Below, one piece after another: positions 1 to 45,487 of a stretch of 49,162 nt of DNA (its first letter is position 1; each line of letters begins with the position of its first letter). A model generated the notes under the pieces. It had not been told where the DNA came from. It saw only the letters and a list, made by a program, of their open reading frames with translations, and ran no database searches. Location: assembly GCA_964016885.1 (NCBI GenBank), contig CAXHJY010000068.1, positions 1 through 49,162 of the forward strand, given 5' to 3'. Origin of the DNA: Eledone cirrhosa (taxonomy: Eukaryota). The translations under genes and the position numbers were made by a program.

Positions 1-1669
1 ATATGTATAGGTATATATATATGTATATATATATATGTATATGTATATATATATGTATATATATGTATATATATATGTATGTATATATATGTATAGGTAT
101 ATATATATGTATATATATATATGTATATGTATATATATATGTATATATATGTATATATATATGTATGTATATATATATATATGTATATATATGTATGTAT
201 ATATATGTATGTATATATATATATATGTATATATATGTATGTATATATATATGTATGTATATATATATGTATGTATATATATATATATGTATATATATGT
301 ATGTATATATATATATGTATATATATGTATGTATATATATGTATGTATATATATATATATATATGTATATATATGTATGTATATATATATATGTATATAT
401 ATGTATGTATATATATGTATGTATATATATATATATATGTATATATATGTATATATATATATATATGTATGTATATATATATATATATGTATATATATGT
501 ATATATATATATATATGTATATATATGTATATATATATGTATATATATGTATATATATATATATATGTATATATATGTATATATATATGTATATATATGT
601 ATATATATATATATATGTATATATATATATATATATATATATATGTATGTATATATATATATGTATGTATGTATGTATATATATATATATATATATATGT
701 ATGTATATATATATATATATATATATATATGTATATATATATATATATATATATATATATATATATATACATTATGAAGAGAGAAGAAACATTTAGATAT
801 AATTAGTAATAAAATGTATCATACCTAAACTGTTCCTAAATTCCTCGACTACGTAGTTTCGTGGCATAAACAAAAACAATATATCAAAGATATAGAGTCC
901 TTGCGAGGTCTGCCGACTTATCAAGAGGATACCTCATTTTACTAGTCTCAAGAACGCGTCTATATATATATATATGTGTATATATATATATATATATATA
1001 TATATATATATATGTGTATATATATATATATATATATATATATATGTGTATATATATATATATATATATATATATGTGTGTATATATATATATATATATA
1101 TATATGTGTATATATATATATATATATATGTGTATATATATATATATATATATATATATATGTGTATATATATATATATATATATATGTGTATATATATA
1201 TATATATATATATATATGTGTATATATATATATATATATATATATATATGTGTATATATATATATATATATATATATATATGTGTATATATATATATATA
1301 TATATGTATATATATGTATATATATGTATATATATGTATATATATGTATATATATGTATATATATATATATATATGTGTATATATATATATATATATATA
1401 TATACGTATATATATATATATATATATATGTATATATATATATATATATATATATGTATATATGTATATATGTATATATATATATATATATATGTATATA
1501 TATATATATATATATATATATATATGTATATATATATATATATATATGTGTATATATATATATGTATATATATATATATATATATGTGTATATATATATA
1601 TATATATATATATGTATATATATATATATGTATATATATATATATATATGTGTATATATATATATATAT
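1..1669. repeat. (TA)n/(TATG)n arrays 1-770 and 961-1669, separated by a 190-bp unique island
   Basis: Direct inspection. Confidence 0.95.
842..929 (-). ncRNA. Type-I hammerhead-ribozyme-like motif (variant core, long stem II)
   Basis: UCCUC-UUGAUAA-GUCGGCA...UGCCAC-GAA-ACUACGUAGU-C-GAGGA. Confidence 0.55.
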
Positions 1670-2320
1670 ATTATCCTTCTCTTCTCTCATTATCCTTCTC
1701 TTCTCTACTTTCACCCGACCACACCTTGAATACTGTTGTCCACTGTGGTCTCCCCACACGAAACAAAGTATCATGAAACTTGAAGCTCCTCAAAGGGCAA
1801 TCACGAAAAAGATAGATGGCATGTCAGACCTTGACTACTGGGGTCGATTGGAAAACCTGAAACTTTACTCACTCCAACGTCGCTGTGAGCGTTATATTAT
1901 CTGCATGATGTGGAAAATGTTCCATCATCACTGCCCAAATGATGTTGGCATCGCCTTCAAGATACACCCAAGGCTTGGGCGCCGTGCTATCCGTCCCATT
2001 CAAAAATCTATATCGCAACTCATAACAACAATACGGCACAATTATTTCACCTCAATCGGCCCTGCTCTCTTCAACATCACACCAGGACACGTCAAAACAG
2101 AAACTGACCACACAAAATTCAAGAAGTCTTTGGACAAATTCCTCCAAGTAATCCCGGACAAACCACCCACACCCGGATATGTCTCCGCAAACAGTAATTC
2201 TCTTCTCGAATGGGCCATGGTGCCCAAATCCTGAATTGAAAGACTTCGCCAGGTGGTGCTATTAAGTTAGACATGGCCTGGGCCAATACTGGCCAAAACA
2301 TTTCAAAGTTATTCAAAGTT
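1670..2320 (+). mobile_element. 5'-truncated CR1-group LINE copy (3' ~630 bp), same family as 13343-15838
   Basis: Near-identical to ~15207-15838 (I counted 4 substitutions); ends ttcaaagttattcaaagtt and runs directly into (TA)n. Confidence 0.92.
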
Positions 2321-41052: not shown

Positions 41053-43724
41053 TATATATATATATATATATATATATATATATATATATATGTATGTATA
41101 TATGTATATATATATATATATATATGTATATATGTATATATATATATATGTATGTATATATGTATATATATATATATATATGTATATATGTATATATATA
41201 TATATATATGTATATATGTATATATATATATATATATGTATATATATATATATATATATATATGTATGTATATATGTATATATATATATATATATATATG
41301 TATATATATATACATATATATATATATATATGTATATATGTATATATATATATATATATATATATGTATATATATATACATATATATATATATATATGTA
41401 TATATGTATATATATATATATATATATATGTATATATATATACATATATATATATATATATGTATATATGTATATATATATATATATATATATATGTATA
41501 TATATATACATATATATATATATATATGTATATATGTATATATATATATATATATATATGTATATATATATACATATATATATATATATATGTATATATA
41601 TATACATATATATATATATATGTATATATATATACATATATATATATATATGTATATATATATATGTATATATATATACATATATATATATATATATATG
41701 TATATATATATACATATATATATATATGTATATATGTATATATATATATGTATATATATATACATATATATATATATATATGTATATATATATACATATA
41801 TATATATATATATGTATATATATATACATATATATATATATATATATATGTATATATATATACATATATATATATATGTATGTATGTATATATATACATA
41901 TATATATATATATATATATATATGTATGTATATATATATATATATGTATGTATATATATATATGTATGTATATATATATATGTATGTATATATATATATG
42001 TATGTATATATATATATATGTATGTATGTATATATATGTATGTATGTATGTATATATATATATGTATGTATGTATATATATATATGTATGTATGTATATA
42101 TATATATATATGTATGTATATATATATATATATGTATGTATGTATATATATATATGTATGTATGTATATATATATATGTATGTATGTATATATATATATA
42201 TATATGTATGTCAACGACCCGACTGGCAACCCCACCAAGGTTTCTTGGTGAGGAGGGTGACTTTGGACATCCTGCAGGACTAAAAACAAAACCTGTCAAA
42301 GGGCAAAGGAGCTCTTAAGTCAATGGCCATCCAAAATCAGTGGGAGAGATGACCCCTTAGCCTTTGTCAAGGCAGAATTCTAGGAGAAGGAAAACTCTGA
42401 TATAACACCTGCAACCCTGATGGTATCCAATGATGTTGACTTGTTCTTCTTTTTGGTAAATATCATCTTGGTTAAGAGAGTGGGACTGGCTTTGTGCAGT
42501 GCCTTTGCTCACTATAAAAGCTTCACGGCACAGGCATTGCTTTGTATCTGGAGATCTCTCTGCACTTGTCGTCACATGGTACCAAAGGCAAAGCACTATG
42601 TGTCAATAATTGTCACAAGTGTAGTGTTTGTACCAGAGTTTTCAAGTCGCTGGCTGGACTAAAAAGTCACTCGTTCAGCGCATCGGTAGGGGTTCTCCTA
42701 CATTGATATAAAGTAGTGGCCGTACTCGAAAACGAGTTGGCAGCCACCATATATGTATGTATATATATATATATATATGTATGTATATATATATATATAT
42801 GTATGTATATATATATGTATATATATATGTATATATATATGTATATATATGTATATATATATGTATATATATGTATATATATATGTATATATATATGTAT
42901 ATATATATGTATATATATATGTATATATATATGTATATATATATGTGTATATATATGTGTATATATATATGTATATATATATATATATGTATATATATAT
43001 GTATATATATGTATATATATATGTATATGTATATATATATGTATATATATATGTATATATATATGTATATATATATGTATATATATATATGTATATATAT
43101 GTATATATATATATATATATATATGTATATATATATATATATATATATATACATATATATACATATATATATACATATATATATACATATATATATATAT
43201 ATATATATATATATATATATATATATATTGTTATACTTGGGGAGGGTCATATTTGTGTAATATTGCCCAGAATTAATATATCTATGTATATATATATGTA
43301 TATATATATGTATGTATATATACTATATAAATATATGTATATATATGTATGTATATATATATATATGTGTGTATATATATGTATGTATATATATATATAT
43401 GTGTGTATATATATATATATGTATATATATATGTGTATATATATATGTGTATATATATATGTGTATATATATATGTGTATATATATATGTGTATATATAT
43501 ATATGTATATATATATATGTAATGTATATAATGTGTATATATATATGTGTATATATATATGTGTATATATATATGTGTATATATATATATGTATGTATAT
43601 ATATGTATATATATATGTATGTATATATATATATATATGTATGTATATGTATGTATATATATATGTGTATATATATGTATATATATATATATGTGTATAT
43701 ATATGTATGTATATATATATGTAT
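41053..43724. repeat. (TA)n arrays 41053-42209, 42749-43227 and 43278-43724
   Basis: Direct inspection. Confidence 0.95.
42210..42748 (+). repeat. Interspersed repeat family, copy 2, inserted in (TA)n
   Basis: Collinear with 36320-36790. Confidence 0.6.
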
Positions 43725-45487
43725 GATATATTGATGACATCCTGATACTTACTTCTTCCCGGGAGATGGCGAATGAAATTCACCAAATCTTCAATGATAC
43801 TGACCATCACGTCGATTTCACCATCGAACACCCAGGAGAAGACGGGTCACTCGCCCCTCCTCGACTTCCGTATCAAACATCTCGGAAGAAGGAGACATAA
43901 ACACCACCTTCTACCGCAAAGCAGCGTGAAAGGACTTATTTATGCATTATAACTCAGCCCTCCCCAACAACGCTAAGAGAGGCTATGTCCTAAATGAACT
44001 GACACGGATCACTAACAGATGCAGCGACCCGATGGGTGGTCTCACCCATACCACGCAATTCCGTAATCTACTCAGATCTAATAGTTATCCCAAGCGACTG
44101 ATTAACGGAATTAGAGACCCCAGACCCAATAGACAGACACCCACTAGAAACTTAAATAAAAGCAGGTGCTTCTTTAAAATCCCCCACCTGAGTGAATATA
44201 CCACGAACGCCATCCGCAGGGCCATACGGACGGAGGGACTTGACATACATTTGGCCCACACAGGACCTTCGCTGCGAAGATGCCTCTCCAACAAACCCGA
44301 CGAGTCAGATGGGACGTGTTCCCTCAGCAACTGCCCGATACGGGGGGCAGATTGCCTACGCACCTATGTCGTATATAAGATTCAATGCGATAAATGTAAC
44401 AAGTTTTACATAGGTAGCACCATCCGACCCCTACATGTTCGTATCAAGGAACATATCAACACCAACGCATCTTCCTTCCGTAAACACATCCTTAAATGCG
44501 GAAACCCACAGGGTAGACCCTTGGTCACAGTCCTAGCGACTGAACGCAGCATCGGATCCTTAAGGATAAAGGAAGCACTTGTTATTAAGAACCTCAGACC
44601 CCCACTTAACAACCGGGCTGAGAGAAATGAGCTGACATGGCTAACTTAACCATAGTGACCATTCACAGCCTACGGCCTGCTATCTTCACACACACGCACG
44701 TATATGCATACCCATACGCATACACACACACATCTATATTTATACACGCACACATGTTTTTACAACCTACCACCTTTCACACCCTTTGATTTCCAGCTTC
44801 TACAGCCCACTATCTTTCACACACAAACGCACTCACACATATACACAGCACAGTTACACACACATGTATACCCATACGCTTACACACACACACATCTATA
44901 TTTATACACGCACACATGTTTTACAACCTACCACCTTTCACGCCCTTTGATTTCCAGCTTCTACAGCCCACTATCTTTCGCACACACACACACTCACAAC
45001 ATATACACACTTACACTTATACACACACAGTTACAACACACATATATATTTACACACACATATCTTACGGCTTTCACACGCTAGCGCACCCTCTTGATTT
45101 AACCCATTTGGTCAGTAGCTTTTGCCACAGCCTATCACGCGCACGCGCATTCTTTCCCTCGTTTAAATTTTAAATAATTTTCTCCCCATAACGTCATTCC
45201 TGACTTAACGACATCACAACTTTCTCCGCTTGGCCTGTTCCCCCCCTTTTGGAACTTTTCCCCCGTTGATGGGCGTGAGCCCGAAATATTGGGATTAAAT
45301 CTCCACTACGGTAACCCTTCTACCTTTGTTTTGTTTTCATCTTTGTCTCTCTCAATTTTCACTTTCACCTGTTTTTCCTATCTATCTTTCACTTCCTACC
45401 TCGAGATTTCCCTCTGCATTGTTGTGGCTTTCTTAACTACGTATTTTACACATTTCACAATGCTTCAAGCAAACTTTAACACCCTCT
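43725..45487 (+). mobile_element. Penelope-like retroelement, 5'-truncated: RT C-terminal half (degenerate), GIY-YIG endonuclease and 3' region
   Basis: Begins YIDDI; then FTIEHP, LDF, FYRKAA*KDLFMHYNSALP; Cys linker CSLSNCPIRGADC; VVYKIQCDKCNKFYIGST.R.L..RIKEH...FRKH (CCHH), KEALVIKNLRPPLN. One stop codon and frameshift(s) near 43855-43930. Confidence 0.9.
45259..45294 (+). ncRNA. Degenerate minimal hammerhead in the 3' region of the Penelope-like element
   Basis: UCCC-CcGuUGA-u-GGGC guga GCCC-GAA-AUAU-U-GGGA; two core substitutions. Confidence 0.5.

Follow-up and report, generated by a model that had tools for sequence, protein, structure and literature searches.

Hammerhead-shaped motifs between (TA)n tracts of Eledone cirrhosa as probable 3′ ends of truncated Penelope-like elements, with an altered core in one family

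The stretch of Eledone cirrhosa DNA analysed here (assembly GCA_964016885.1, contig CAXHJY010000068.1, positions 1 to 49,162 of the forward strand; hereafter "the window") is a 49-kb contig in which unique, non-TA islands stand between (TA)n tracts, several of the islands carrying a motif with the layout of a type-I hammerhead ribozyme. With a probability of about 0.88, these islands are what remains, after 5′ truncation, of the 3′ ends of retroelements of the Penelope type (Penelope-like elements, PLEs) from seven or more dispersed families; they bear a hammerhead-shaped motif 50–250 bases from the 3′ end, and a PLE GIY-YIG endonuclease and reverse transcriptase (RT) likely inserted them at (TA)n. 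The six families to which the islands first listed belong are all dispersed throughout the genome. The tandem and inverted structure, the tail and the TA bias of PLEs have been published (PMC8557442), as have retrozymes (PMC7229834) and PLE hammerheads of minimal form (PMC4209133); what appears to be new is a core, fixed in one lineage (family F), from which both U4 and A6 are missing, the rest being known kinds of element. It is a tentative possibility that this PLE lineage evolved a working hammerhead without U4 and A6 (core C-C/A-G-U-U-G-A) through a U4C intermediate, rescued by dimerisation and by the element's own protein, in a genome with some 2–3 × 10⁵ motifs (one per 10–14 kb), the densest load among the published figures compared.

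The initial annotation had read hammerheads in eight islands between 842 and 45294, and all eight stretches are indeed there. Four of them (842, 19926, 20145 and 25989) pass a first descriptor that demands a CUGANGA or UUGANAA core, stem II, GAAA, a self-complementary stem III, a non-G base 17 and stem I, while the islands at 26148, 38828, 39688 and 45259 need correction. This descriptor finds five matches in the window, at 842-929(-), 19926-19991(-), 20145-20210(+), 25989-26024(-) and 30766-30890(+), the last being an intact island that had been overlooked; since 100 block-wise (local) dinucleotide shuffles yield a mean of 0.01 matches (maximum 1), the motifs are not due to chance. The count of about six families is correct for the islands listed, although those at 19927 and 20146 belong to a single fold-back insertion. 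The minimal type-I core (C3/U3-U4-G5-A6-N7-G8/A8-A9, G12-A13-A14, A15.1-U16.1, H17, i.e., a non-G base 17) is present in families A, B, C, D and G and, at the family level, in E; in this hammerhead numbering a G at position 17 blocks cleavage, the NUH rule being given also in PMC11014351. The exceptions are the family E copy of the window, which deviates at base 17, and the island at 26148, which has no stem I strand of its own. An Rfam check of the window was blank, with 0 matches at gathering thresholds, as expected for motifs of minimal form, and over 19800-31300 at E ≤ 5 the 150 rows listed of 247 contain hairpin and miRNA noise but no hammerhead. Matches of a first crude scan at 35106 and 39992 were discarded when they failed the later descriptors.

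The islands share fixed 3′ ends lying against (TA)n, ragged 5′ ends, inverted partners, an optional tail and partial tandems, and the combination of fixed 3′ ends, variable 5′ ends, inverted partner and optional tail constitutes the PLE signature (PMC8557442). In family F all 30 copies inspected (30/30) reach a (TA)6 tract 194–232 nt past the motif, compared to 17% of random positions within 230 nt; in family D, 15 of 26 copies meet such a tract at exactly 50 nt and in family C 22 of 30 do so within 129 nt, whereas upstream of the motif the distances are scattered. Furthermore, in families B, C, D and F the hammerhead-bearing repeat is preceded by RT followed by GIY-YIG coding sequence. None of the islands is single-copy, each being part of a dispersed repeat, and the earlier proposal that they represent termini of TA-targeting PLEs or non-autonomous ribozyme retroelements is borne out by the high copy number of the families, the covarying stems and the 3′ ends abutting (TA)n.

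Table 1. Hammerhead-related features of the window
Feature	Position	Strand	Remarks
Family A, 5′-truncated copy of 591-nt tandem element (retrozyme-like)	770-962	-	pattern matches, unit anatomy
Family B fold-back insertion (inverted 5′-truncated pair), PLE 3′ end	19887-20341	both	98.5% self-inverted; hammerheads 19926-19991(-), 20145-20210(+)
Family C, 3′ end of Neptune-type PLE	25905-26125	-	canonical minimal hammerhead 25989-26024, extra base after A9
Family B copy truncated at core	26148-26334	+	common family B 3′ flank
Family I, two fold-back remnants	28044-28311 (28044-28185, 28247-28311)	-	stem III/stem I pieces only, core absent
Family G, partial tandem of ~996-nt non-coding unit	29860-31082	+	intact hammerhead 30766-30890; descriptor and pattern matches
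Family D, 3′ end of Hydra-type PLE	38772-38975	-	hammerhead about 38825-38962, core UUGAAAA at 38956-38950 (U3-A8)
Family E, old copy	39495-39860	-	80–87% to relatives; hammerhead 39688-39772 with G17
Family F, 5′-truncated autonomous PLE (RT C-terminus + GIY-YIG)	43731-45487	+	ORF (open reading frame) ends 44646; Pfam GIY-YIG E=8e-5
Variant hammerhead of family F	45259-45294	+	core CCGUUGA 45263-45269 (U4C, A6U), U17 at 45290

Family B is Hydra-type by its motifs. [quoted passage not shown] When copies were chosen by the 3′ flank alone, 53 distinct strings were obtained, in 50 of which the core could be located; the conserved core positions are kept in 47–50 of these 50, while position 7 displays all four bases. 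In stem II three pairs switch on both sides (A-U/G-C and U-A/C-G), the counts being those of sequences and not of independent events. At the level of sequence comparison, this stem covariation, together with that between subfamilies F1 and F2 described below, shows that ribozyme core and stems are under selection. The island at 26148 has lost the native 5′ strand of stem I, so that the stem I read there is borrowed from the TA tract. As a separate observation, 35 of the 41 distinct stem II sequences of family B have C.C in place of the fourth pair, a conserved mismatch that apparently recurs in families D and E and is possibly a protein or tertiary contact.

Family D had been assigned a core, CUGAUGA within 38828-38917, that turns out to be private to the window copy and absent from all 24 other copies (24/24). 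The family core is instead UUGA(A/C)AA, about 45 nt upstream. A pattern leaving seven core positions free has 839 genomic matches (0 for the backwards-pattern control), and position 7 is the sole commonly variable core site (24 per 100 among the matches listed, by hand count; other positions ≤4). In sister families the core reads C3-G8 (CUGAAGA) without a shift of frame. Family D itself has a tandem unit of 4,431 bp with RT and endonuclease similarity, its protein being 36–46% identical to that of B. Family C, with 2,632 first-look candidates whose best copies are 94–96% identical, has an ORF comprising RT thumb, Zn-linker and GIY-YIG upstream; its copies are too similar to reveal covariation. 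The copies of B, C and D examined are partial or frameshifted.

Family E numbers 2,652 first-look candidates with a common sequence of 600–730 nt; no contiguous PLE ORF was found in four longer loci and no tandem unit was identified. The motif at 39688-39772, listed earlier as a further island of the type-I layout, has G at position 17 as opposed to C in most of 24 other copies, and this copy is predicted to be non-cleaving. In the loci related to the family I remnants the core is of the U3-A8 form and stem III is long, the stem III motif having 57,508 matches; this long stem III could fold as a monomer, and most copies seen end inside stem II with loss of the core. Family H, to which most of a further 6,952 matches belong, has a canonical core with A, G or U at position 7 and 3′ ends at TA.

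Families A and G consist of non-coding units arranged head to tail, each unit bearing a single type-I hammerhead, and are in this respect retrozyme-like. Family A has 7,634 exact 19-mer matches genome-wide (backwards-pattern control 0), mostly head-to-tail at a spacing of about 591 nt and often with an inverted partner; its unit of 591 nt has a longest ORF of 86 amino acids, copies reach about five units, and an inverted piece is present in 17 of the 38 loci with matches. Its hammerhead, 842-929(-), combines a U3-A8 core with a 10-nt palindromic stem III and is predicted to cut after C847; the copies are too alike for covariation to show. In 40 new loci, 53 of 56 3′ ends lie at +79–81 or +245–251 relative to the position where cutting is predicted, and in nearly all of them (TA)n comes immediately afterwards. 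The two fixed 3′ ends are thus about 165 nt apart, and inverted pairs often take one of each. The downstream flank was counted 7,289 times, compared to 7,634 motif matches, i.e., with no excess of ribozyme-less copies. Family G has 34 exact 24-mer matches, two other pairs of which are spaced by 994 and 998; the core is present in 18 of 20 loci, the longest ORF is 95 amino acids and the 3′ ends are at TA.

Family F is the one in which the core departs from the rule. Its copies are 95–99% identical, the full unit of 3,452 bp has an open frame of 887 codons with a Cys-rich linker, the 3′ end extends about 30 nt into the ORF's beginning and abuts the TA array, and the start codon follows the motif at a distance of about 170 nt. 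The reading of 45259-45294 as a hammerhead holds as far as the layout is concerned (extra U, 4-bp stem II with a GNRA loop, GAAA, palindrome AUAU), whereas the core, CCGUUGA, is not canonical. That this is a private mutation is ruled out by its being the state of the family, found in 95 per 100 among the matches listed (of 1,384; backwards-pattern control 0). An alternative register, in which UUGAU would occupy positions 3–7, was likewise rejected, on grounds of parsimony; it needs a 3-nt insertion and the loss of G8 and A9, and the sister subfamilies keep C3 and the standard spacing. Contigs from sequencing runs covering 45063-45487 show no substitution inside the core in the two of four runs that cover it.

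The sister subfamily F2 (about 67% protein identity to F1, the subfamily of the window; 3,241 matches) has CAGUUGA in 86 per 100 among the matches listed, with two stem II pairs changed on both sides, the GNRA loop kept, a palindrome longer by two bases and A as base 17, while the flanks of F1 and F2 are 50–56% identical in global alignment. A third subfamily, F3, differs in loop and palindrome length, and a pattern covering F1–F3 has 4,951 matches. In the more distant family F4 (55–57% protein identity; 3,578 matches) the core is CCGAAGA in 59 and CUGAAGA in 28 per 100 matches listed; the mirror G-to-A change occurs in just 2 of 100 listed, and the canonical form probably represents a real subfamily rather than CpG decay. 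A single genome thus contains the series CUGAAGA, CCGAAGA, CCGUUGA and CAGUUGA; we infer the order of these changes from pairwise identity (67% vs 55–57%), a tree of 12 protein fragments having left F1 plus F2 versus F4 unresolved. Among distant relatives of F in 58 metagenome loci (26–62% identity), a relaxed scan gave 17 matches (10 CUGANGA, 3 UUGANAA, one CCGAAGA, one CAGAUGA and two weak CAGUGGA), none of which has the F core. With U4 and A6 replaced, F1–F3 fail the canonical core test and are to be regarded as a hammerhead-like variant and not as canonical members; they retain C3-G8, G5, A9, G12-A14 and A15.1-U16.1, and base 17 remains other than G. The F core did not appear in the main texts and passages searched, those on octopus hammerheads included, and may be listed in supplements or by Lunse et al. 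(RNA Biol 14:1499), who deal with PLE hammerhead variants; in the main text of an octopus repeat annotation of 2026 (PMC13282606), ribozymes or hammerheads are never mentioned.

The pathway by which the islands could have arisen would begin with a PLE endonuclease nicking TA-rich DNA, followed by reverse transcription from either of two sites inside the RNA that lie downstream of the ribozyme. Because the motif would lie just upstream of these start sites, reverse transcription that usually stops early should still leave the ribozyme in almost every stub, and most truncated copies would appear as motif-bearing islands in TA tracts. The palindromic stem III may allow two tandem copies to cleave as a dimer; such cleavage, predicted after base 17, would probably be slow and assisted by the element's protein. 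The usual template would likely be uncut RNA, since family A copies can span as many as about five units; these multi-unit copies also show that uncut or circular RNA gets copied. In the Poseidon element of Anolis the protein nicks AT-rich DNA and RT starts at internal RNA sites, while the hammerhead is protein-assisted and dispensable for insertion in vitro (PMC11167929). The predicted minimum-energy fold of the homodimer is a double hammerhead in families A, D and G.

Several findings weigh against the view that the islands are truncated PLE termini with selected ribozymes. The predicted homodimer minimum-energy fold is not a double hammerhead in families B, C, E and F; no mobilising partner of A, E or G was found in the loci examined and, for A in particular, no 5′ end of these loci runs into an ORF. 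The family A tail of about 165 nt is longer than the 30–40 nt described. A footprint of cleavage in vivo at the predicted family A cut, suggested by a first post-hoc look in which 5′ ends of 6 of 18 long copies fell 10–39 nt past it (P about 9e-4), had to be abandoned when a prediction set in advance gave 0 of 38 on the 40 new loci. To these points must be added the way in which the family B pairs are counted and the fact that the clade names Hydra and Neptune were assigned provisionally, by motif and not by a tree with reference elements.

The frequency of the motifs was assessed on a background sample of 379.6 kb drawn from 19 large contigs, on which 38 stretches of 10 kb had been chosen evenly, at round positions; in it the first descriptor gave 33 matches, i.e., 4.3 expected per 49 kb vs 5 seen. 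A second descriptor, demanding neither the palindrome nor H17 and run over 429 kb, gave 52 matches; 32 of these have a fully self-complementary stem III, with G17 in none of the 32, whereas 20 shuffles produced 17 matches in all, only 2 of them palindromic. A single satellite accounts for nine of the 52, which are doubtful; once these are dropped, the 38 matches of the background sample correspond to 4.9 expected per 49 kb vs 5 seen in the window. By bootstrapped extrapolation with the second descriptor to a genome size of 3.0 Gb, the genome carries about 300,000 motifs (180,000–430,000), or 210,000 (110,000–320,000) when strict palindromes alone are considered, an estimate that derives from a small sample of large contigs and has inactive copies counted in. 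By this extrapolation, with roughly 2–3 × 10⁵ such motifs, the genome is unusually rich, and the window is an ordinary slice whose motif density matches the genome background. As to its composition, very long TA arrays occupy 1-25900, 41052-42209 and 45488-48353, and they are broken up on one strand by little other than TG, the GC skew being close to +1.

These counts bear on the alternatives. A chance origin of the motifs, as random matches within AT-rich repeats, is hardly tenable: the Rfam blank, the accidental core at 38828 in one copy and the nine doubtful satellite matches in the background would suit it, but it is at variance with the shuffles and is largely refuted by the free position 7, the C3-G8/U3-A8 switch and the covariation of the stems. 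Very improbable, too, is the idea that the window is a local hotspot in which giant TA arrays accumulate ribozyme elements. Indeed, (TA)6+ tracts make up 35% of its bases vs 4.3% in the sample, and seven families coexist in 49 kb, yet the number of motifs is that of the background with either descriptor and the 25-kb array has just three motifs inside, with two more at its edge. The earlier description of the islands as an archipelago finds no support in these counts. Just as improbable is the proposal that the family F element at 43731-45487, first noted at 43725, moved all of the islands in trans as passengers. F is a young family, has an intact ORF elsewhere and inserts in TA, but only the island at 45259 belongs to it; B and D (Hydra-type) and C (Neptune-type) stand behind ORFs of their own, and the A and G units have no blastn match to F.

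A far more serious contender, with odds a little short of even, is that cleavage has been lost in family F, whose motif would survive either as a structure for dimerisation or protein binding or as a relic. Both U4 and A6 are lost, A6C by itself gives a kobs <0.1/min and activity in vitro is reduced by U4C (PMC3088659), insertion in vitro did not require cleavage by the PLE hammerhead (PMC11167929), Naiads have spread although they lack canonical hammerheads (PMC8557442), and the predicted lowest-energy fold of the F dimer is not a hammerhead. On the other hand, the divergence between F1 and F2, considerable both in protein and in flanks, has left all positions of catalytic type unchanged; two stem II pairs have changed on both sides with the GNRA loop and the palindrome kept, and base 17 has gone from U to A, still avoiding G. 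Judged from these comparisons, the F motif would most likely be a ribozyme that is weakened but still selected. The F core combines two natural changes at positions regarded as nearly invariant, with a graded series in one genome, and would escape standard descriptors. Either catalysis survives without U4 and A6, or active PLEs preserve the fold for a role other than cutting, and both outcomes bear on the function of PLE hammerheads. The estimated load of the genome exceeds the published counts compared and, if the motifs were even slowly active, those in introns could matter for host RNA.

Among the systems already described, the closest are the pseudo-LTR (long terminal repeat) hammerheads of PLEs (Cervera and de la Pena 2014, PMC4209133), with which the motifs of Eledone share the type-I layout, the short palindromic stem III, the extra base after A9 (C and F) and U3-A8 (A and D), as well as the presence of many unrelated families per genome, mostly as single truncated motifs, and of inverted pairs 100–700 bp apart. 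They differ in the load, 2–3 × 10⁵ here vs about 2,000–9,000 in schistosome, coelacanth and Xenopus, figures obtained with different descriptors, and in the very long stem II of A, D, E and G, the C.C mismatch of B and the F core. Up to 120,000 hammerheads, again by other descriptors, have been reported for axolotl (PMC7229834), whose genome is 28 Gb (bioRxiv 10.64898/2026.07.22.740005). Family B resembles the Hydra-clade PLEs (Craig et al. 2021, PMC8557442) in its CxCX5C linker before a C-terminal GIY-YIG, its (TA)n insertion and its hammerhead. With non-LTR retrozymes (PMC7229834), argued to be non-autonomous PLE derivatives (bioRxiv 10.64898/2026.07.22.740005), families A (591 nt) and G (~996 nt) have in common the non-coding head-to-tail arrangement and the single type-I hammerhead per unit. 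The retrozymes of coral and axolotl have canonical ribozymes, unlike the minimal U3-A8 or long-stem-II forms of A and G; strict TA targeting, two fixed 3′ ends and inverted partners set the present elements further apart, and the G unit is slightly above the retrozyme range of 51–972 bp given in the same preprint. In the Anolis element Poseidon PAc (Frangieh et al. 2024, PMC11167929) the motif lies across the start codon, unlike that of F, the F core is non-canonical by comparison, and the tails are longer here. Finally, natural variants with U4C (a viroid) or A6C (phage Bcep176) vary singly at the same two positions and have low activity (Perreault et al. 2011, PMC3088659), whereas here U4C or U4A occurs together with A6U and is fixed in thousands of copies.

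The window contains other elements besides. An RT-encoding LINE (long interspersed nuclear element) with a long open frame (13345-15837(+), Pfam RVT_1) and a second, 99.4% identical 3′ fragment of it (1671-2319(+)) both end directly in TA, and are thus a young non-PLE element of the same array. The 3′ fragment of another LINE (4530-5725(-), zf-RVT), which we take to be Tx1-like, is likewise inserted in the TA array. Exon-like pieces of a gene of the ionotropic glutamate-receptor type extend over 26456-35866(-) (Lig_chan-Glu_bd, E=3e-6 at 27471-27950), and the islands of families G and I apparently lie within its span.

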